The position numbers and the translations under genes are program-made. From a virus (lineage: Monodnaviria > Loebvirae > Hofneiviricota > Faserviricetes > Tubulavirales > Inoviridae), in IMG/VR virus record IMGVR_UViG_2537561933_000001, positions 1 to 8,130 of that record: a stretch of DNA of 8,130 nucleotides; one strand, 5' to 3'. A model generated the notes under the pieces. The model was not told the origin of the DNA. It made no database searches and saw nothing but the letters and a program-made list of their open reading frames with translations. How positions within the stretch are numbered: position 1 is the first letter of the stretch; each line of letters begins with the position of its first letter. Below, one piece after another: positions 1 to 8,130 of the stretch.

Positions 1-1455
1 TTATTGATTCGACTCATATGCACTCCATTCATCGCATACATGGGAAAAGGTTGATTTCAGGGCTTCGTTATCAATCACAATTCGCTGAAGATTGGCCGTA
101 TTAGCCTGCTGAGATAGAAATCTTTTAGCGTAAAGATCAGGCATATGGCTATTGTGACTCCAACCGCCAAGTAGCCGTAATTCATCCTTGGCTTCATCCA
201 TCAATCCAACGATAGAAAAGTCTATGGCTGCCAAGTGTGAGTTGGCCTTAATTTTTTGAAGTTTATCACGATAAATACGTTGAAGTGTTAAATAAGCCCA
301 AGTATGCCGCGTTATATGAGGCGAGATGCTTTCAATGGCATCATAATATTCATCTTTTTTATATTCAGGATACTGCACACTCATAATGTCATCAATACGG
401 GTAAAGATATCATAGACTGCATGGTATGACAGTGGCGGATGTAGTCTTTGGGTGGAAGTGAACAGAAAACTATGGGAGGCTTGAGGGCGGATTTTATGGA
501 TATATATATTTAGAAAATGAAAGTCCAGTTTATCTAATGCCAGCACCCGGTTTGCATAAACATTTTTTAATGAAGGCAATCTTTTTCGTTGATCCGAAAC
601 GTCGTCATCTACTGTGGTCACAATCAGGCTGAACTGATCCCCTCGGAGATTTGGTTTGATCGAATGACACTCCAAAAGCAGTAATTCACTGACACGCAAT
701 CCGTAATTTAAAAGCAATCTGCAAATCAGAAAATTACGTAGCTGGATTTCACCAGCGGGGAAGGGATTGAGTGGGTTTTTCTTTGAAATTGAACCGGGTG
801 TAATGATTTGGTAAAAAGCCATGACCATCTCAGCAGTCAGACTTCGAAAGCGTTTATGGGTCGTGCCATTGTTCATCTGACGAGAATGGGTAAGAGTACG
901 GAATTCTGCCTTATGTATCGATAAACGTCCCGTTAACTGCGTGGCAAGTCGTGTAAGCTCTTTAGGCGTGCCATCTATATATCTCGGCGAGATATACGTG
1001 TTAATCAAATATCTGATAAAACGAATAACCGAATGTACATGCCTGATATTTGTACAACGTTGAGGCGTGGTCTGCGTAGTAGACCTTATGGTTAACGCTG
1101 GTACATATAAATGCGTATTTTCCAGATAATGAAAAAAGGCTGTAAGTTCATCAATGGCAATCAATGGATTGTGGTTCGAGGAATAGAAACTGAAGCAAAA
1201 AGTCACACCATGTTTCTGGTGCCAGAATTCATAGAAAAACTTGAGCGCTTGAAGTGAAGCGGATTGCGTGGCTGATGAACGCAAAGCAAGATGGTCGATA
1301 AGATATATTAACGGATATAAAAGCGGCTGGCGCGTGTGAGTATCCATCAGTGCCCATAAACGCTGCCGTTGGTTGATATTGAGTTGTGTAAGTATGAACA
1401 CGCGGCACTTAACCTTATCAATGGTGTGGATATGAACAAAGTAACCGACAAACAT
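1..1455 (-). CDS. Tyrosine site-specific recombinase / integrase-family protein (about 484 aa from ATG at 1453-1455; ORF track extends to a TTG at 1465-1467)
   Basis: Complete minus-strand ORF with stop at 1-3 (TAA). Translation contains the tyrosine-recombinase catalytic signature in correct order: box I Arg in 'YGLRVSELLLLE', 'HITRHTW' (HxxRH-like box II), and 'LGGWSHNSHMPDLYAK' (LG[HW]...Y catalytic Tyr region). ATG at 1453-1455 is preceded by AGGA (GCAGGACGTT-ATG). Start codon choice is uncertain. Long N-terminal region (about 250 aa) precedes the catalytic domain. Confidence 0.75.
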   Translation of the reverse strand: MFVGYFVHIHTIDKVKCRVFILTQLNINQRQRLWALMDTHTRQPLLYPLIYLIDHLALRSSATQSASLQALKFFYEFWHQKHGVTFCFSFYSSNHNPLIAIDELTAFFHYLENTHLYVPALTIRSTTQTTPQRCTNIRHVHSVIRFIRYLINTYISPRYIDGTPKELTRLATQLTGRLSIHKAEFRTLTHSRQMNNGTTHKRFRSLTAEMVMAFYQIITPGSISKKNPLNPFPAGEIQLRNFLICRLLLNYGLRVSELLLLECHSIKPNLRGDQFSLIVTTVDDDVSDQRKRLPSLKNVYANRVLALDKLDFHFLNIYIHKIRPQASHSFLFTSTQRLHPPLSYHAVYDIFTRIDDIMSVQYPEYKKDEYYDAIESISPHITRHTWAYLTLQRIYRDKLQKIKANSHLAAIDFSIVGLMDEAKDELRLLGGWSHNSHMPDLYAKRFLSQQANTANLQRIVIDNEALKSTFSHVCDEWSAYESNQ

Positions 1456-1546
1456 AACGTCCTGCAAGAAGAAGATAGAGGGGTAGGTAAGTGTATGATT
1501 AATCGTATCCTGTGGCCGGTTATGAACTAAATGACCGACGGACTAA

Positions 1547-1574
1547 ATTTAACATAATATACATTATGCGCACC
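1547..1574 (-). other. dif: 28-bp XerC/XerD recombination site dif (chromosome dimer resolution site), here the prophage/chromosome junction
   Basis: Plus strand 1547-1574 reads ATTTAACATAATATACATTATGCGCACC, the exact reverse complement of the canonical E. coli dif sequence GGTGCGCATAA-TGTATA-TTATGTTAAAT (XerC arm, 6-bp centre, XerD arm) as I recall it; 28/28 match. Lies 38 bp beyond the stop of the 77-aa cargo gene and about 90 bp upstream of the recombinase start. Confidence 0.85.
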
Positions 1575-1612
1575 AATGGTAAGGATGGCGGGAACTGGCG
1601 TTACCGGTGCCG

Positions 1613-1846
1613 TCATTGGTCACAGACCGTAATCCACTGGCCCAGGACGTCTTTCAGGCAATGTTGGCATAAATCCAGTTTTAAGCGATTACTGTCACCA
1701 AAAATTGAACCGTATCCAGCTAAGTGATTAACAGACAGAAACTCATTGAACTCAATGTCATCTACCACCGTCTTCGCATGGCGACCACAGCGATCGCAGG
1801 TCTTCGCACATAACATTACAGTATCGCTGGATGTGAAAAATTGCAT
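1613..1846 (-). CDS. Small zinc-ribbon protein (77 aa, two CxxC pairs), function unknown; prophage cargo next to dif
   Basis: ORF with ATG at 1844-1846 preceded by strong RBS (GAGGAGATAAA-ATG). Stop TGA at 1613-1615. Protein has CDRC (C17/C20) and CQHC (C60/C63) plus C13 and C75, consistent with a Zn-ribbon. No confident family assignment from memory. Confidence 0.6.
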   Translation of the reverse strand: MQFFTSSDTVMLCAKTCDRCGRHAKTVVDDIEFNEFLSVNHLAGYGSIFGDSNRLKLDLCQHCLKDVLGQWITVCDQ

Positions 1847-1919
1847 TTTATCTCCTCGTAATGCTGCCGCGCCGAATCAGCAATAACGCTAAAAAAACAG
1901 AATTGTTCGGCTTGGCCAA

Positions 1920-1960
1920 CCCCTGACACTAACAAAAGCAAGTTTTGTCATTGTCCGGGG
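1920..1960. promoter_or_regulatory. Imperfect 18-bp inverted repeat (15/18) around a 5-bp centre; candidate operator or structured RNA element between the two cargo genes
   Basis: CCCCTGACACTAACAAAA-gcaag-TTTTGTCATTGTCCGGGG; arms at 1920-1937 and 1943-1960, centre 1938-1942. Located in the 117-bp gap between the 102-aa gene stop (1964) and the 77-aa gene start (1846). No convincing sigma70 -35/-10 pair found nearby. Confidence 0.35.
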
Positions 1961-1963
1961 TTA

Positions 1964-2272
1964 TCATATAAACCAATAGACCGTCCTTACGCCATTCTGG
2001 TTATCAATAACATAGCCGCATTGTTTCCTTAAAAATTCTTCTGCTAAATCAATGGCTTTTACAGAAATCTCATAAGAAGGAAGTAAAGTGTATCCTTTCC
2101 CTTCACTGGCAGCTGCTTTGATCGCATCCAGAGTATTATCAATCAGTAACAGAGCAAGTGATGCTTCATTTACCTGAGCCGAAGAACTTCTGGCTGCAAG
2201 TGTCATTGTTTTTGCTTCTTCCGCTGTAATCGTTCGTTCTGCCAGAGCAGATAAAATCCCATAAGAATCCAT
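1964..2272 (-). CDS. Hypothetical protein (102 aa), Ala/Leu/Glu-rich, function unknown; prophage cargo downstream of gIV
   Basis: ORF with ATG at 2270-2272 preceded by GGGG (TTGGGGTAACTA-ATG); stop TGA 1964-1966. Same strand as phage genes and sits between gIV and dif. No recognisable motif. Confidence 0.5.
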   Translation of the reverse strand: MDSYGILSALAERTITAEEAKTMTLAARSSSAQVNEASLALLLIDNTLDAIKAAASEGKGYTLLPSYEISVKAIDLAEEFLRKQCGYVIDNQNGVRTVYWFI

Positions 2273-2297
2273 TAGTTACCCCAATCAATAATGTCCA

Positions 2298-2346
2298 TTT
2301 GATGGATAGCGAGCAGGGCTCACGCACCTACCCGCTATCCATCAAA
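2298..2346. repeat. Perfect 14-bp inverted repeat with 21-nt spacer overlapping the gIV stop codon (potential hairpin: packaging-signal-like or termination element)
   Basis: Left arm 2298-2311 TTTGATGGATAGCG; right arm 2333-2346 CGCTATCCATCAAA (exact reverse complement). gIV stop TGA is at 2342-2344 inside the right arm. No U-tract follows on the minus strand, so it is not a canonical intrinsic terminator. Confidence 0.7.
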
Positions 2347-3607
2347 GTGGACGAATGATATGTGCTGTAAGCAAAATATACATAATACGCTGTTCATTGC
2401 TGTCTGCCTTGCTACTGAAAATCCAGCCTATAAGAGGAATTTTACTTATAACTGGAACTGAACGCTCGGCATTGCTGAACGATGAATCGATAAGCCCTCC
2501 CAATAACAACGTCTGACCATCCTTAATCTGGACTGTCGTCTGAATCTGGCGCTGATTAGTAATAATATCGGATGCCTGATCATCATTGCTGATTGAATCA
2601 GCGCGAGTGTCGATAGTCAGAACTAGTTGCCCGTTACCCATGACAACAGGCGTTACCTTGAGAGAAACGCCAACATCATGACGCTCGATAGTCTGAAACG
2701 GATTATTTACCCCGGCAGATTCGCCCGTTACCTTTCCGGTGATAAACGGCACATTCTTACCTACGGAAATGTAACCAGTCTGACCAGACTGAGTAAGAAT
2801 ACGCGGCGTTGAAATCACCTTAGAGCGTGAATTACTCTGGACAGCACGCAGAGACAGCGCCAACACGTTACCATCAAAAATACCAAAAGACCCGCCCGCC
2901 GTAGAAAGAGCGCTACCCAGTGCAGAAGTATTAAAGCCCCCCGCAACCTTATGACCGGATGCAGACCCTGCCGCAAACGATAAATCAACGCCATCAGACA
3001 AGCTGGTTTCAAACATCAGCGACTGAATGAGAACCTGATCGCGGGCAACATCCACAGAATTGATAAAATCGGACAGAACCGGCAGCAGCTCGTCAGGCGC
3101 AGAAACAATCAGCGAGTTATTGCCTGGATAATCCACGACATTACCACCACCATTAGAATCAAGATAAATTTTAATCAGTTGCTGAACATCGGACGATCTA
3201 ACTTTTGTCAGCTTAAAATTTCTGACCGTAAGCGCCACAGGTACTGGCTGGTAAGATGGCTCAGAAGGAAAAGTATCATAAGACTGGTTATCAGAATCAT
3301 CGGAATCCGAAACCATCTGTGAAGGTAATTTAGACGGCAAAGAGACTACCGCAGGATTGCCAGAAAGCATGACAAAACCGTTAGCATTCAGAACAGACTT
3401 AAAGAAATCATCAATATTTGTTGGATTAACATCAGCATTAAATACGGTTACGTTTCCTTTAATATCAGGATTAACAATAACAGGCTTGCCAGTTTTTGAA
3501 GAATACCACTGAACAAATGAGCGAACAGATGAATTATTTAAATTAACAGTTTCAGCAGAAACGCAGAATGAACAGGCAAATAAAAAAGCAACAATAACAG
3601 AGCGCAT
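2342..3607 (-). CDS. IV: Filamentous-phage pIV outer-membrane secretin (virion export channel)
   Basis: Translation aligns along its length with M13 pIV as I recall it (e.g. GGSFGIF.G.VL.LS.RA...NS.SK..S.PRILT.SGQ.G.ISVG.NVPFITG.VTGESA.VNNPFQTIER; C-terminal SKIPLIG..FSS..DSNE). Start placed at ATG 3605-3607 (M32 of the track ORF), which gives a signal peptide MRSVIVAFLFACSFCVSA and is preceded by AGGAG. The track ORF start at 3700 would overlap gI. Confidence 0.95.
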   Translation of the reverse strand: MRSVIVAFLFACSFCVSAETVNLNNSSVRSFVQWYSSKTGKPVIVNPDIKGNVTVFNADVNPTNIDDFFKSVLNANGFVMLSGNPAVVSLPSKLPSQMVSDSDDSDNQSYDTFPSEPSYQPVPVALTVRNFKLTKVRSSDVQQLIKIYLDSNGGGNVVDYPGNNSLIVSAPDELLPVLSDFINSVDVARDQVLIQSLMFETSLSDGVDLSFAAGSASGHKVAGGFNTSALGSALSTAGGSFGIFDGNVLALSLRAVQSNSRSKVISTPRILTQSGQTGYISVGKNVPFITGKVTGESAGVNNPFQTIERHDVGVSLKVTPVVMGNGQLVLTIDTRADSISNDDQASDIITNQRQIQTTVQIKDGQTLLLGGLIDSSFSNAERSVPVISKIPLIGWIFSSKADSNEQRIMYILLTAHIIRPL

Positions 3608-3614
3608 AATAATA

Positions 3615-3989
3615 TTACTCCTGACAGGTAACAGTCTGTAAATAACGGCCTTTTCTAATAACAACACGACAGGCATCTTTAATATCAACGGAATAACCAT
3701 CTTTAATCAAATCAAAATACTGATATTTCATACCTTTTGCATCAACAAACGTAACGGAAACGTCAAAGCCAAGTTGTGAAAAAGAATTAATAGAAAGTCG
3801 GGGTAAGTCACTGGACGAATCAGGCGTTACCGCCCTCGCCTGTTCAGCATAAGCAGATTTAATAGCTGAGATTTCATCAACATTCTTTCCAGACTGGAGC
3901 CAGAAACCAAACGCAAGCCCCAGCGCCAAAAAAGAAAGCATTAATATAAGACGGTTCGATTTGCGAAAATAAATTTTAGTGAGGCGCAT
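3615..3989 (-). CDS. XI: Candidate pXI (in-frame internal start within gI, C-terminal membrane-anchored portion)
   Basis: In-frame ATG at 3987-3989 (M241 of pI) giving MRLTKIYFRKSNRLILMLSFLALGL..., positionally and sequence-wise matching the M13 pXI start (MKLTKIYLKKFSRVLCLAIGF as I recall). Expression is not demonstrable from sequence. Confidence 0.45.
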   Translation of the reverse strand: MRLTKIYFRKSNRLILMLSFLALGLAFGFWLQSGKNVDEISAIKSAYAEQARAVTPDSSSDLPRLSINSFSQLGFDVSVTFVDAKGMKYQYFDLIKDGYSVDIKDACRVVIRKGRYLQTVTCQE

Positions 3990-4709
3990 ATAATAATTAA
4001 ATCCTCTGTGAACAGAAAATTGACCGTGCGTGATAAATGGTGGCAAAAGCGAAAATGCGCCATGAGGATAATTATCTGTGAACGCTTGTTTGGTATTGTA
4101 AGCAGAATAAAGATATTTTCCTGTATATATCCATTTATCAACAGTGATTGAATTAACATTATCACCATATTTGACAATGCCAAAGTGTACCTTTGGTAAA
4201 GAAAATCTCGCCCCTGAAACCAAATTCATAATGGAGCCAACAAAAGGAATGTTTAATTTATCTGAACGGCGACAATAAACAACATGCTCAGCAAGCGCCA
4301 GACGAGCTTGCTTATCCATTATCGAAATATCCTGAATCAAAAATATAATATCCCAGCCTAATTTTCTGGCATGTAAAAACCAGTCAATAACAGGTTGTCT
4401 GTCTTTATCACCCCATGAGCGGGAATTAAACCAAGTACCACATTCATCAAGTACAAGGAGGCCATTACGGGATTCATCGTAAGATGCATTCCCAATACCA
4501 ATAGCAAGTAAATCATTTAATGAAGGCTTGTCAGGAATGCGAATAACGCGCGTTTTTTTCGCATAACGCCCAACCATAGGCATATTATGCAATTTAAGAT
4601 CAAGATTAGTGGCAACAGGACAACCCTTAGCAAGTCTTTCCTGTATTCTGGAAACACTAACAAGTGTCTTGCCTGAGCCTAATTTGCCTGTTACTACATA
4701 AACCGCCAT
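3615..4709 (-). CDS. I: Filamentous-phage pI assembly ATPase (Zot-like, Walker A)
   Basis: N-terminus MAVYVVTGKLGSGKTLVSV... with Walker A GKLGSGKT; long stretches match M13 pI as I recall it (RIPDKPS..DLLAIG.GN.SYDE..NGLLVLDECGTWFN.RSW.DK.RQP.IDWFLHARKLGWDIIFL.QD.SI.DKQAR.ALAE.VVYCRR). ATG 4707-4709 immediately follows gVI stop (TAA 4710-4712). Confidence 0.95.
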   Translation of the reverse strand: MAVYVVTGKLGSGKTLVSVSRIQERLAKGCPVATNLDLKLHNMPMVGRYAKKTRVIRIPDKPSLNDLLAIGIGNASYDESRNGLLVLDECGTWFNSRSWGDKDRQPVIDWFLHARKLGWDIIFLIQDISIMDKQARLALAEHVVYCRRSDKLNIPFVGSIMNLVSGARFSLPKVHFGIVKYGDNVNSITVDKWIYTGKYLYSAYNTKQAFTDNYPHGAFSLLPPFITHGQFSVHRGFNYYMRLTKIYFRKSNRLILMLSFLALGLAFGFWLQSGKNVDEISAIKSAYAEQARAVTPDSSSDLPRLSINSFSQLGFDVSVTFVDAKGMKYQYFDLIKDGYSVDIKDACRVVIRKGRYLQTVTCQE

Positions 4710-5051
4710 TTAAATCACCCTGTTTGCATAATCAAGAAATTTTTGTTTTAAATCGAAAACAAAAACACTGATACGAGTAACCATAATAACGTTAACACAC
4801 GCCTGAAAATGGTCAGGCAATACAGACGCCATTAAATGGGAGAAATCAGCAGGTAAACCGTTATACATGACCTCAGCAAGGTACTGCATTAAAAGCGTAA
4901 CAGTTGTTGTAATTAATGCGACCAATGCAAAGGCGATTAATCCTGTTCTGGTAGCAAGTCGAGCTAAAAAACTCGCCACATAGCCAATAAACAAAGGAAC
5001 AAGACCAATAAGAAAACGCAACAATGCAGGAATACCTAATAATAAAGGCAT
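4710..5051 (-). CDS. VI: Filamentous-phage pVI minor coat protein
   Basis: Hydrophobic 113-aa protein [14 protein letters not shown]... ending ...FVFDLKQKFLDYANRVI, matching M13 pVI (MPVLLGIP.LLRFL ... IFIFDVKQKI). ATG at 5049-5051 overlaps the gIII stop TGA (5051-5053) in TGATG (translational coupling). The track shows a GTG one codon upstream. Confidence 0.9.
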   Translation of the reverse strand: MPLLLGIPALLRFLIGLVPLFIGYVASFLARLATRTGLIAFALVALITTTVTLLMQYLAEVMYNGLPADFSHLMASVLPDHFQACVNVIMVTRISVFVFDLKQKFLDYANRVI

Positions 5052-6256
5052 CACTCACCCCCTTTGCGAAGCAATGAAGTTAAAGAAGTAAAGACATACC
5101 AGAACGTAAGGCAATAAAAAACCCATGAAAGAACATCTTTAATAGTCAGTAATTTATCGCAACCAATATCAATCTGATAAACCTCTCCGGGAAATATAAT
5201 AAAATCAGAGCAGCCGTTACCATTGGGTAAATTAGGCAGCATAGCACCTTTATTTAAAAATGCTTCCCATAAAGCACCGTGAGAATCCTTTTCAATTCCC
5301 AATTCAGAATCAGCTAAAGTAGAAGCGCCATCTAATTCAGAGTCGCCCTTTCCATAACGAGAATCACCACCTGAAGGGTCAGCAAAACGGCCAGCCCCCC
5401 GCGTAAGATTGTTAATGGAATCGTCAAGACGATTTATATTATTCCTGGTTTGTTCATCGGCATTTTTTTTATCATCTGATGAAGTGTCTTTCTCCGTTAA
5501 TTTATCATGAATATCGCTGGCTATTTTGGGTGAAGCACCTTCGATCGCAGACTGAATATCACCTTTAGAAAGACTGGAACCACTAGAGCCACCGCCAGAA
5601 CTACCGCCACCGGACTCACCACCGCCAGACTCACCACCACCATTTTGGGGGGTTGAGGGTTTATCAGAGGGGTCAGCTACAGCACCTGTAGGCTTCCATG
5701 TTGCAGCGCAAACAGTACCATCACCCTGACAAACAATGACACCAGTAGCCTCATATTCACAGCCGTTATAGTAGATATAGCGACCACCATCATATGAATC
5801 AACATTATTAAATACACCTTCTTCTGGCGGCTTCGCTTCACAAATTTCTTCTGGTGTCGGGTCAGTAGGTTTTTCATCAGGAACAGAACGCTGAATATTA
5901 CCAACAATATAAGCCGTTAAAGACCAATATTTATCCTTCTGCCCTGGTGAATCGCTGTAAGTACAATCGCCAGTAAAAACAAGACGGAATTCAGAATCAG
6001 GCCAGATACCCTCATAAGTTGGTTTAATCCGAGTAAATACACTCTGAGCACTGGATTTAGCACCCTGACAAGCGGAGGCCTGCATAGCAGCATCAATATA
6101 GTAAACCGTTATCTTAGAGCCATCCTGATTGGTTATTTGCTTACTTTCAGCATAGGCAGAACTTTGATAAGTGGATTTAGTAATGCTTTCCCATGACTCA
6201 GCATGTGAAAAAGGAGAAATGAGGACAGCGGAAAGAATTAATATTTTCCTTCTCAT
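5051..6256 (-). CDS. III: Filamentous-phage pIII adsorption/minor coat protein (401 aa precursor)
   Basis: Start placed at ATG 6254-6256 giving signal peptide [19 protein letters not shown]. The track ORF start at 6400 lies inside gVIII and is rejected. Contains an N1-like TolA-binding domain motif ([19 protein letters not shown] vs M13 NATGVVVCTGDETQCYGTW), a Gly/Ser-rich linker [20 protein letters not shown], and a C-terminal anchor domain matching M13 ([21 protein letters not shown]...WYVFTSL vs CRPFVFSAGKPYEFSIDCDKI...MYVFSTF). Confidence 0.9.
5573..5641 (-). repeat. Short tandem direct repeats encoding the Gly/Ser-rich pIII interdomain linker
   Basis: Plus strand ...GCCACCGCCAGAACTACCGCCACCGGACTCACCACCGCCAGACTCACCACCACC... 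encodes [20 protein letters not shown] on the minus strand; repeated units about 12-15 nt. Confidence 0.6.
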
Positions 6257-6266
6257 AGTAACCCGC

Positions 6267-6293
6267 TTTAATAAAGGGGCAACGAGTGCCCCT
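6267..6293 (-). terminator. Rho-independent terminator between gVIII and gIII (minus strand)
   Basis: Minus strand reads A-GGGGCA-CTCGT-TGCCCC-T followed by TTTATTAAA: 6-7 bp GC-rich stem (6276-6281 / 6287-6292), 5-nt loop, T-rich tail. Position immediately after the major coat gene matches the strong central terminator of Ff phages. Confidence 0.6.
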
Positions 6294-6302
6294 GAGTGAA
6301 AT

Positions 6303-6545
6303 TCAAACCGCTTTTGAAGAGAATTTTTTGAAAATACGAATGGCAAGCCCAGCGCCAACCACAGCAACAACAACAGGCCATACTTTACCAATGAGATCAT
6401 TTGCCTGAGTCAACAAAGCATCCATTGCCTGACCTGCATAATCAGTACCACCTGTAGCGCCTTCAGCCGCAAAAGAACTTGCAGAAATAAAAAGCGCAGT
6501 TGAAGCCAAAGCAATTTTATATTTAACAGTAGACAGAATTTTCAT
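6303..6545 (-). CDS. VIII: Filamentous-phage pVIII major coat protein (80-aa precursor)
   Basis: Signal peptide [26 protein letters not shown] then mature [54 protein letters not shown]. Very close to the IKe mature coat protein as I recall it ([53 protein letters not shown]) and to the M13 C-terminus KLFKKFTSKAS. RBS GGAG upstream of ATG 6543-6545. Confidence 0.95.
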
Positions 6546-6564
6546 AGGAATAACTCCATTAAGG

Positions 6565-6660
6565 TTACATTAATCGGTCAGAAAATGATTTAAATGAACC
6601 GACCGCATAGAAAAGGGCAAAACCAAAGGTATAAGCCCCGAAGAAATAAACGATATACAT
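6565..6660 (-). CDS. IX: pIX-like small minor coat protein (31 aa)
   Basis: ATG at 6658-6660 overlaps the gVII stop (TAATG). Hydrophobic product MYIVYFFGAYTFGFALFYAVGSFKSFSDRLM resembles M13 pIX in size, hydrophobicity and C-terminus (..FTRLM..). It is the C-terminal part of the 74-aa track ORF, whose upstream part overlaps gV and is rejected. Confidence 0.7.
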   Translation of the reverse strand: MYIVYFFGAYTFGFALFYAVGSFKSFSDRLM

Positions 6661-6746
6661 TAACGAAAGACCCCCGCAGTAATCGCGCCGAGGCCAAAAG
6701 AAATAACGATGCCAGACGCTATCAAAATTTGAATAACATCGTCCAT
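6660..6746 (-). CDS. VII: pVII-like small minor coat protein (28 aa); not in the ORF track
   Basis: Manually translated: ATG 6744-6746, 2 nt after gV stop, giving MDDVIQILIASGIVISFGLGAITAGVFR, stop TAA 6660-6662. Resembles M13 pVII (..MIQISVVLCFALGIIAGGQR). RBS-like AAAGG 6 nt upstream. Confidence 0.75.
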   Translation of the reverse strand: MDDVIQILIASGIVISFGLGAITAGVFR

Positions 6747-6748
6747 AT

Positions 6749-7066
6749 TTAACCTTTGATCTCTGCGATGCCACCATCGGAAGCAACATTATAAGTTACA
6801 CCTTCCCTACCCTCCATTGACCACGCACGGACATAGACAGGAATTTGAACTAATTTCCCAATGAAAGCATTCGCCTGGTTCATTAGACCTGCGTTAACGA
6901 GAGCCTGAGAAACTCGAATAATAATTTGATCCTGCTTTGTACCACCAAAACCATCAGGTATTTCAAGGCCAATACCAATTTCATTATAATAGCCCTGACC
7001 ATTAACTTTATTACGTTGGCGGGCTCCCAACATTTTACCCTTAACGAAAAGACCATAATTAGACAT
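6749..7066 (-). CDS. Putative ssDNA-binding protein (gV position), 105 aa
   Basis: Assignment by synteny (between gII and gVII) and size. ATG 7064-7066 preceded by AAAGGAAAG. Sequence is not obviously similar to M13/IKe pV from memory, so the function is positional inference. Confidence 0.55.
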   Translation of the reverse strand: MSNYGLFVKGKMLGARQRNKVNGQGYYNEIGIGLEIPDGFGGTKQDQIIIRVSQALVNAGLMNQANAFIGKLVQIPVYVRAWSMEGREGVTYNVASDGGIAEIKG

Positions 7067-7077
7067 ATTACTTTCCT

Positions 7078-7440
7078 TTAATGCCAGCTACTGGCGTGCG
7101 AAATACGGTTGTAATCGAAAATAAAACCTTTCTCATAAATCCATAAGGGGATTTCCGCTGGCTTGGCTTCCAGCGTTCTTATTAGCGGAACAACGTTATT
7201 AGAGTCTGGTGAATCACAATAGAAATTAATATCGATACCGAACGAAAGCAATTCTCTTCTATGGCGATAAAAAGTGTTATGAGGTAACATTTCTTTCATG
7301 TTAGCCCCTTGTTTCCAAAGTAAATAAGTTGACTGTATTTTTCTTGGCAGTTTCGTTATTTTTTCATCACTTAAAATAGCATTCTGATTCATTTCTATTC
7401 TCCCTACATATTCAGAGAATAATTGACGTGGTGTTTTCAT
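7078..7440 (-). CDS. Candidate pX (in-frame internal start within gII, C-terminal 120 aa)
   Basis: In-frame ATG at 7438-7440 (M231 of the gII product) gives a C-terminal product of similar size to Ff pX (111 aa). Only a weak RBS-like GGAA upstream. Purely by analogy with Ff gene X. Confidence 0.3.
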   Translation of the reverse strand: MKTPRQLFSEYVGRIEMNQNAILSDEKITKLPRKIQSTYLLWKQGANMKEMLPHNTFYRHRRELLSFGIDINFYCDSPDSNNVVPLIRTLEAKPAEIPLWIYEKGFIFDYNRISHASSWH

Positions 7441-8130
7441 ATTCCAGTTAGCGCCAAGCGTTAAATTTAAATCAATAAGCTCAGTTGTTCTTAATGTTAA
7501 TTCAATACGTAATTTATCTTTCGTCCAGTCCAGTAACCCGGCTCGTACAAACTCTTCGGCTATCTGGTGCCCTTTTTTACCAGAAACGTGTTCATCATAT
7601 TTTGAATAAAATTTTAGACTCCATCGACGGGAGTTTTTACCTAAATAAACTGTACCGCCTTTCCCACATGCGCGACCATGGCGTGTTTTAGCTTTAAATT
7701 CGGCGGCATAAAGCCATGATCTGACATTTTCCAGCGTAGATAATGAATACATGTAATTAATGTCAATACGTGAAATTTTATACTGACCTGCCATAACGGC
7801 TTTATAAGACGCTAAATCATGAGGAATATTCAATAAGGATAAAATCCTGGCATAGACCGTCAACATGAGCCCTTGTATATCATCCGACCCAACAACAGAA
7901 TGCCCCTGCAGAAACTTGGAAGGATTACCATCAATGTACAAATGTGTCGCTTTACCTTCGCCATTAGATCCTATCGATCGTACTTTCATCGTTGCTTCAT
8001 GCGAGCCGCGAACAGTCAGTCGCTTAACGGTTTCCCACTCAATTGCACCGTCAGCATCAACGCTGACAACACTCCCCGCCGGAAGCGGTTTGTGTGTGCA
8101 AGGGAAAATCCCGGTAAGCCAATCGATCAC
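7078..8130 (-). CDS. II: Replication initiation protein (gII-like rolling-circle initiator); begins at GTG exactly at the window edge
   Basis: 350-aa ORF at the gII position, directly upstream of gV. N-terminus MIDWL... resembles M13 pII N-terminus (MIDML...) as I recall it. Start codon GTG at 8128-8130 coincides with the window end, so an upstream extension or RBS cannot be checked. Stop TAA 7078-7080. Confidence 0.8.
   Translation of the reverse strand: MIDWLTGIFPCTHKPLPAGSVVSVDADGAIEWETVKRLTVRGSHEATMKVRSIGSNGEGKATHLYIDGNPSKFLQGHSVVGSDDIQGLMLTVYARILSLLNIPHDLASYKAVMAGQYKISRIDINYMYSLSTLENVRSWLYAAEFKAKTRHGRACGKGGTVYLGKNSRRWSLKFYSKYDEHVSGKKGHQIAEEFVRAGLLDWTKDKLRIELTLRTTELIDLNLTLGANWNMKTPRQLFSEYVGRIEMNQNAILSDEKITKLPRKIQSTYLLWKQGANMKEMLPHNTFYRHRRELLSFGIDINFYCDSPDSNNVVPLIRTLEAKPAEIPLWIYEKGFIFDYNRISHASSWH

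Follow-up and report, generated by a model that had tools for sequence, protein, structure and literature searches.

An exact dif site bordering a CUS-1/YpfPhi-type inovirus prophage in Escherichia coli, with a GInt-like island on its other flank

We consider it very probable that the 28 bp at positions 1547-1574 of the window (the whole stretch of DNA analysed here, 8,130 nucleotides) are the functional dif of an E. coli chromosome, regenerated at the end of a prophage of the CUS-1/YpfPhi family which was integrated via the host XerC/XerD, and that this prophage is an integrative element exploiting XerCD (IMEX). It would be a clean example of an IMEX in E. coli, with a dif regenerated exactly, precise hybrids at the junctions, an attP of two sites as in CTXphi, and an array of three copies. 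The prophage itself adds little beyond the known CUS-1 and YpfPhi, and the case indicates that reading of the raw sequence is able to spot such elements. More is to be gained from the opposite side of dif, where a widespread island apparently homes to the XerD arm via its own recombinases.

The dif site in the window

The exact E. coli dif, GGTGCGCATAATGTATATTATGTTAAAT, lies on the minus strand of the window at 1547-1574 with 28 of 28 positions matched and 0 mismatches, just as the initial annotation had recognised it from its reverse complement. No second dif was found in the window at up to 3 mismatches, and 200 dinucleotide shuffles of the window gave 0 dif matches. The alignment to the host dif, which had been proposed as a check, gave the same answer, since the dif of E. 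coli K-12 MG1655 (extract L009 6751-6778, flanked by the pseudogene yneL and by hipA) is the identical 28-mer. The structure GGTGCGCATAA-TGTATA-TTATGTTAAAT, that is XerC arm, centre and XerD arm as they are established for dif, is present in the window over all 28 positions. Moreover, the site occupies the terminus-region position of dif (yneL/ydeT to hipA), in agreement with the order yneL-dif-hipA in MG1655. The elements of the site are as follows.

1547-1574, minus strand: exact 28-bp dif, 28/28 match, no chance matches, equal to the MG1655 dif
1547-1557: XerD arm, ATTTAACATAA as read on the plus strand, part of dif
1558-1563: central region, TATACA as read on the plus strand, part of dif
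1564-1574: XerC arm, TTATGCGCACC as read on the plus strand, part of dif
1560-1574, minus strand: the 15 nt GGTGCGCATAATGTA, phage crossover zone, from the junction alignment (four junctions of KFu015 and two of UM146)
1547-1553, plus strand: ATTTAAC, the outer XerD arm and right direct-repeat copy of the GInt-like island (attR core), from the junctions in STEC388 and KFu015

The 15 nt GGTGCGCATAATGTA consist of the XerC arm and four central bases, are common to dif and the phage attP1, and include the XerC cleavage position. The exact dif of the window is a recombinant site, of which the XerC arm is phage-derived and the outer 7 bp are shared with the att core of the island.

Genes of the prophage

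The prophage occupies the window from the dif side to its last nucleotide, and all of its genes are on the minus strand.

1575-8130, minus strand: CUS-1-type inovirus prophage, from the dif-side end to the gII start codon, about 99-99.7% identity in 47 E. coli genomes
1613-1846, minus strand: 77-aa ORF of unknown function (phrog_5435, 4.5e-46)
1964-2272, minus strand: 102-aa ORF of unknown function (phrog_4115, 2e-68)
2342-3607, minus strand: gIV, secretin (Pfam Secretin 5.7e-43, with N0 and Secretin_N domains)
3615-4709, minus strand: gI, Zot-like assembly ATPase (Pfam Zot 5.8e-41)
4710-5054, minus strand: gVI, minor coat protein (phrog_1944, 1.2e-43)
5051-6256, minus strand: gIII, attachment protein with variable Gly/Ser linker (Pfam G3P_pilus-bind 2e-25, Phage_Coat_A)
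6303-6545, minus strand: gVIII, major coat protein (phrog_1646, 3.9e-33)
6565-6663, minus strand: gIX, minor coat protein (phrog_28333 / phrog_19107, the gIX/gVII pair)
6660-6746, minus strand: gVII, minor coat protein (phrog_28333 / phrog_19107, the gIX/gVII pair)
6749-7066, minus strand: gV, ssDNA-binding protein (phrog_1547, 4.2e-51; 'DNA-binding protein' in RefSeq)
7078-8130, minus strand: gII, replication initiator, complete, 350 aa (Pfam Phage_CRI 4.6e-71, G2P_X_C 1.9e-29)

The core set of the Ff/IKe-like phages is complete and in order from gII to gIV, and each core gene has a Pfam or PHROG match, which agrees with the initial assignment to this kind of inovirus. The last phage gene encodes the 77-aa ORF, which ends 38 bp from the XerC arm, so the dif site is indeed directly past the phage genes. 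When the window was compared by megablast with a phage collection, which holds no CUS-1 or YpfPhi record, only matches of about 190 bp in gIV of IKe and Erwinia PEar were obtained, and across roughly these 190 bp the nucleotide identity to the gIV of both phages is about 80%. The whole prophage unit is 7974 bp long in E. coli KFu015, and its remainder, including attP, lies beyond window position 8130, where a 60-aa ORF and a gene for a Doc-like toxin (phrog_577) are added. No integrase or recombinase domain was found by Pfam, PHROG or annotation in the 13 ORFs of the 7974-bp unit (gII, gV, gVII, gIX, gVIII, gIII, gVI, gI, gIV, the 77-, 102- and 60-aa unknowns and the Doc-like toxin).

The length of gIII varies among the prophages, being 1206 nt in the window, 1281 nt in KFu015 and 1293 nt in UM146, so that the window gene is 75 bp (25 aa) shorter than that of KFu015; this variation is located in the GGGS-type linker repeats at about 5560-5650 of the window. 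The KOPS motif GGGNAGGG occurs once in each phage copy (as CCCTACCC, at about 6811 of the window, in gV) and twice in the island, always directed towards dif, and 0 times in the non-permissive orientation in the island and phage copies, which is compatible with FtsK-guided dif activity, the counts being too small to interpret.

Distribution and junctions of the prophage

Of 5426 complete E. coli genomes, 47, with UM146 among them, have a match that covers 80% or more of the window with an identity of about 99-99.7% and spans 1546/7 to 8130. The whole window from 1 to 8130 is matched by KFu015 (from river water, Japan) only among the matches listed, and the remaining matches listed start at 1544-1561, that is inside dif or at most 3 bp past its outer edge. 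The left flank, 1-1546, is the end of a GInt-like island and not the chromosome backbone which the initial reading of a prophage boundary would suggest. Four states of the locus were found, namely empty in MG1655, with the phage only in UM146, with the island only in AR_0085, and with both in KFu015 and the window. An intact dif elsewhere in related strains had been named as evidence that would speak against the reading, and what these strains have is the normal dif locus, empty or occupied. The existence of the phage-only UM146 and the island-only AR_0085 shows that the phage and the island are independent of each other.

Along the KFu015 chromosome, yneL is followed by the island, dif, three phage copies and hipA-hipB. 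The XerC arm GGTGCGCATAA has four occurrences there with an exact period of 7974 bp (+7974, +15948, +23922), which delimit three tandem 7974-bp copies between dif and hipA, the last of which adjoins hipA-hipB. A single copy of 8386 bp is present in UM146, bounded likewise. Six junctions, four from KFu015 and two from UM146, were aligned: the site beside the two small ORFs is the exact dif, and all the other junctions read GGTGCGCATAA TGTACGACTCG TTATGTTGAAA and then phage sequence; at the hipA end, the sequence preceding the XerC arm is chromosomal. In this alignment, dif and the phage site are identical over GGTGCGCATAATGTA only. Thus in both KFu015 and UM146 the prophage DNA extends from an intact dif to a dif/attP hybrid, and the crossover falls where the XerC arm meets the centre. 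A second, probably hybrid, junction had been expected past gII. The dif-like partner site does exist in KFu015, but the first site that is reached there is a phage-phage attP junction, and the chromosomal hybrid lies three units away. In the window's own genome, GGTGCGCATAATGTACGACTCG would recur at about +7974 bp.

Two further genomes deserve mention. In E. coli EC5502 (NZ_CP092647.1), 16 separate places match, against a median of 1, and there may be a very large tandem array or dispersed phage copies in this strain. The ETEC O6:H16 strain M9682-C1 (L007 21575-40300) has a different dif-integrated inovirus in two tandem copies, adjoining an IS1-truncated remnant of the GInt-like island. Its gII and gV products are equal in length and annotation to those of the window phage and are different RefSeq proteins; the attP1 junction sequence on its hipA side is unchanged, and its genes for structure and morphogenesis form another module, with DUF2523, another gIII and a GspD-type secretin. 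This mosaic suggests modular exchange among the IMEX phages of E. coli.

The phage attachment site

The attP and the hybrid junction are located beyond the window and were taken from KFu015, which is 99.7% identical to the window. On the gene-sense (+) strand, attP reads CCATT GGTGCGCATAA TGTACGACTCG TTATGTTGAAA AGGCCGCTGCG-AAAATCGAATCC-CGCAGCGGCCT CTTTAGCATAA CGTCA TTGTGCGAACC. It begins with attP1, which is composed of a XerC arm equal to that of dif (GGTGCGCATAA), an 11-nt spacer beginning with TGTA and a XerD-like arm (TTATGTTGAAA). A GC-rich hairpin follows in the middle, and then attP2, an inverted dif-like site with a 5-nt centre (CTTTAGCATAA CGTCA TTGTGCGAACC). Each arm is matched at 9 or more of 11 positions. 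As single-stranded DNA, the (+) strand of attP folds with -30.7 kcal/mol (z = -7.7), and the fold pairs XerC-like with XerC-like and XerD-like with XerD-like arms, leaving the centre bulged. The complementary strand reaches -28.0 kcal/mol (z = -5.6), a difference of 2.7 kcal/mol; as it folds almost equally, folding alone does not select the ssDNA route. Furthermore, an IMG/VR phage contig with only 83-85% identity in its core genes has the 97-nt attP module at 100% identity. UM146 likewise keeps the module, and the mosaic phage of ETEC M9682-C1 keeps the attP1 part of it.

The cargo beside attP2 differs among prophages that are otherwise 99.7% identical (L001 28375-29444 versus L002 14842-16318). 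In KFu015 it is the gene for the Doc-like toxin, and in UM146 three other ORFs, including that of an ECs_2282-type zinc-binding protein; the identity between KFu015 and UM146 restarts exactly at attP2.

Mechanism of integration

The prophage's gene-sense strand runs on into the top strand of dif, as it must if (+) ssDNA is integrated, and therefore an exchange by XerC between the folded (+) ssDNA and dif is favoured. By analogy with CTXphi, the packaged (+) ssDNA would fold and bring its two inverted sites together as a dif-like duplex. XerC would then cut after GGTGCGCATAA in both dif and phage and exchange one pair of strands, the common TGTA would stabilise the strand exchange, and the junction would be resolved by replication. 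The expected product is the one observed: on the hipA side, the chromosomal XerC arm is followed by the phage spacer and the XerD-like arm, a non-functional hybrid, and on the other side the phage XerC arm is followed by the chromosomal TGTATA and TTATGTTAAAT, which makes an exact dif. Tandem copies, three in KFu015, would arise from repeated integration or from replication. What the sequences show is the identity of the site, the anatomy of the junctions, the lack of an integrase, the presence or absence of the phage among strains and the hairpin fold; the dependence on Xer, the ssDNA route and catalysis by XerC alone we infer.

The only alternative with some weight, though an unlikely one, keeps the dependence on Xer and replaces the ssDNA by the double-stranded replicative form, which would be used in the manner of VGJphi and TLCphi: double-stranded attP1 would recombine with dif, XerC first, and the inverted site would be incidental, for example a terminator. 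For this purpose attP1 would be read as the XerC arm, a 6-bp centre TGTACG and a degenerate XerD arm ACTCGTTATGT. TGTACG and TGTATA do have the same XerC-proximal 4 nt, as in VGJphi-type sites (PMC4246890), but the XerD arm so read matches at 5 of 11 positions only, and a XerD-like arm with 9 of 11 positions lies 11 nt from the XerC arm, with an inverted site with 9/11 arms 35 nt away. The GC-rich hairpin between the two sites stands directly after the Doc-like gene, as a terminator would, and the strand asymmetry of folding is small; however, the arrangement observed is the attP1/attP2 layout of CTXphi, with its centres of 12 bp and 5-7 bp (PMC4246890), and the module is conserved without any change over 97 nt between phages that are 83-85% identical elsewhere. 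In addition, CUS-1 and YpfPhi are placed with CTX in the reviews (PMC4266046, PMC4246890).

That the adjacency is coincidental, due to homologous recombination or to an assembly artefact, with the 28-mer merely the resident dif, is very improbable. Indeed dif is present in every E. coli, with or without phage, but the homology breaks at dif with base-pair precision in dozens of independent complete genomes, and the exact 7974-bp period of the XerC arm together with the hybrid hipA junction are signatures of site-specific recombination. Insertion of the prophage by the tyrosine recombinases of the adjacent island instead of XerCD, for which there are two or three such genes directly across dif, has a negligible probability and was rejected on account of phage-only genomes and different crossover positions, as 0 of the 29 other phage-bearing matches listed extend left of about 1544 (no island flank; e.g. 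UM146), the core ATTTAAC of the island is in the outer XerD arm whereas the phage crossover is at the XerC arm/centre border, and island-only strains exist.

Comparison with known dif-integrating elements

The CUS-1 prophage of E. coli O18:K1:H7 was reportedly described by Gonzalez et al. in 2002, and UM146, whose prophage is 99.7% identical to that of the window, presumably shares its ST95 lineage with the strains of serotype O18:K1:H7. Both YpfPhi and CUS-1 integrate at dif, which is restored intact at the 3' end; their arrays of 2-4 copies have an imperfect dif at each internal junction, and XerC/XerD binding sites are present on the phage as an inverted pair (PMC4266046). Next to attR there are two ORFs whose function is unknown, the segment adjacent to attL varies between both phages, and for YpfPhi the XerC-dependent integration has only been proposed (PMC4266046). 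CUS-1phi and YpfPhi are classed as CTXphi-class IMEX (PMC4246890), and CUS-1 is named among the dif-integrating phages (PMC2731167). The window prophage resembles them in its gene order gII-gV-gVII-gIX-gVIII-gIII-gVI-gI-gIV, followed by two small ORFs beside an intact dif, as well as in the integration at dif, the imperfect dif between tandem copies, the inverted XerC/XerD pair and the variable cargo at the far end. The 77-aa and 102-aa ORFs are positional, not sequence, counterparts of the attR-adjacent YPO2281 (PMC4266046) and of YPO2280a of YpfPhi, respectively. The differences lie in the attL-side cargo (the Doc-like toxin in KFu015 and three ORFs in UM146, against orf1/orf1a in CUS-1 according to PMC4266046), in the three tandem copies of KFu015 and in the length of the Gly/Ser linker of gIII. 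The initial proposal of an IMEX of the CTXphi, CUS-1 and YpfPhi kind is supported by the lack of an integrase, the dif-linked junctions and the agreement with the descriptions of CUS-1 and YpfPhi. The identity with CUS-1 proper would be inferred from the description of CUS-1 in the review (PMC4266046). The biology of the window prophage is that of the CUS-1/YpfPhi-type IMEX, which is already known, and the Doc-like cargo and the three-copy array of KFu015 are minor variations.

In CTXphi, the centres of attP1 and attP2 are 12 bp and 5-7 bp, and the folded (+) strand is the sole substrate (PMC4246890). The window phage is similar in being without integrase, in the inverted sites with a long (11-12 nt) and a short (5 nt) centre on a forked hairpin, in the dif homology that is confined to the XerC arm and the first central bases, in the regeneration of dif at one end and in the tandem arrays. 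It differs in the host and in its unrelated structural genes, and the distance between the sites is about 35 nt here versus about 90; the dependence on Xer is a putative one here. The IMEX of the VGJphi and TLCphi class and the gonococcal genetic island share with it the use of XerCD at dif and the regeneration of a dif site. Their attP, however, is a single double-stranded dif-like site of 28-29 bp with a 6-7-bp centre, whereas in the window phage 11 nt separate the XerC arm from a good XerD-like arm, and there is another site in inverted orientation.

The GInt-like island on the left flank

The sequence on the other side of dif belongs to an island with three recombinase-like genes, which is 26,420 bp long in KFu015.

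1-1546, minus strand: right end of the GInt-like island (26,420 bp in KFu015), from the collinear homology to the Sakai gin operon
1-1401, minus strand: first island gene, a ginA-like tyrosine recombinase of 466 aa (Pfam Phage_integrase)

In KFu015 this gene is followed by those of a 516-aa integrase, a 788-aa protein and a 144-aa protein. The first two proteins (A and B) match Pfam Phage_integrase, A below the gathering score. The similarity of A, B and C to the gin operon of strain Sakai (ECs3512-ECs3510) is collinear but weak (9e-16, 1e-4 and 6e-8), and the fourth protein (D) has no detectable similarity to the Sakai GinD; ECs3510 and ECs3509 are ginC and ginD in the table of GInts (PMC10214605). 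GInts are genomic islands described by Bardaji et al. 2017, which target ssb and other genes (PMC5385486); at one end they have the ginABCD operon of three integrase-like genes and a small one, and their excision as a circle depends on all four. The island appears to resemble them in its four collinear genes at one end, two of the Phage_integrase type, a large third protein and one of about 140 aa, and is like them in its 26 kb of cargo with imperfect flanking direct repeats, the Sakai gin operon being a listed GInt. What sets it apart is where it sits, since both in dif and in the Xer sites of plasmids it occupies the outer XerD arm; in the literature searched, no paper that links GInts to dif, Xer or XerD was found, and the GInt paper (PMC5385486) mentions neither dif nor Xer.

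The left junction, in STEC388 and KFu015, reads yneL...CATG ATTTAAC|TTATGTTGAG, and the right one GGACTAA|ATTTAAC ATAATATACA..., and here the outer XerD arm of dif doubles as the right-hand copy of the 7-bp repeat. The cargo is bounded by imperfect direct repeats, attL ATTTAACTTATGTT and attR ATTTAACATAATAT, with 7 perfect positions and 10 of 14 overall, in the range of 10-17 nt of the GInts. At the left junction the dif identity stops after ATTTAAC, short of the border between XerD arm and centre, and therefore the crossover of the island is not at the XerD cut position. This suggests that recombinases of the island itself act on a core within the XerD arm, with the Xer site being regenerated.

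Of the 5426 complete E. coli genomes, 171 have the end of the island and 97 the left junction. The end was also found in 30 plasmid records, mainly of Klebsiella and also of Escherichia, Salmonella, Citrobacter, Enterobacter and Cronobacter, and in 11 species representatives of a GTDB genome scan. The left end had no match in the plasmid collection, so the plasmid copies have a different distal end. In 19 of 20 contexts from chromosomes and plasmids, ATTTAACATAA comes directly after the island end, then a 6-nt centre (TATACA, GATAGA, CAATGA, TCTTTA or CGTACA) and a XerC-like arm, and the XerC arms and the flanks vary by replicon. We give an even chance to the reading that this is a GInt-like family which inserts by its own recombinases into the outer XerD arm (ATTTAAC) of chromosomal and large-plasmid Xer sites across the Enterobacteriaceae, each time regenerating the Xer site and leaving the XerC side free for the stacking of IMEX. 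If this is true, dif is flanked here by two mechanistically different dif-seeking elements, and the island would represent a new target class of GInts and a new exploitation of dif without XerCD. It would make dif and the dimer-resolution sites of plasmids general landing pads for a second class of elements and explain the movement of the island between chromosomes and plasmids, and one would have to ask how dimer resolution can proceed with 26 kb of foreign DNA placed directly on the side of XerD, which FtsK activates.

The exception among the 20 contexts is Enterobacter pasteurii A-8 (L018 5099-5160), in which ATTTAAC is followed by the non-Xer sequence TATTCTGGGTTTGAGG...; this copy may be in a secondary target with the 7-bp core only, or may have been rearranged. 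A contig labelled Chryseobacterium sp. 18061 (L019) has the island end beside an Enterobacteriaceae-type dif (TATACA centre, TTACGCGCACC) and is probably a contaminant or mislabelled. The island of KFu015 (L001 701-3912) contains corA and ysgD between two copies of IS1A and a Tn3-family remnant with IS4321 and IS5075 at its ends, and these IS and Tn3 insertions are secondary ones that enlarge the cargo of the island.
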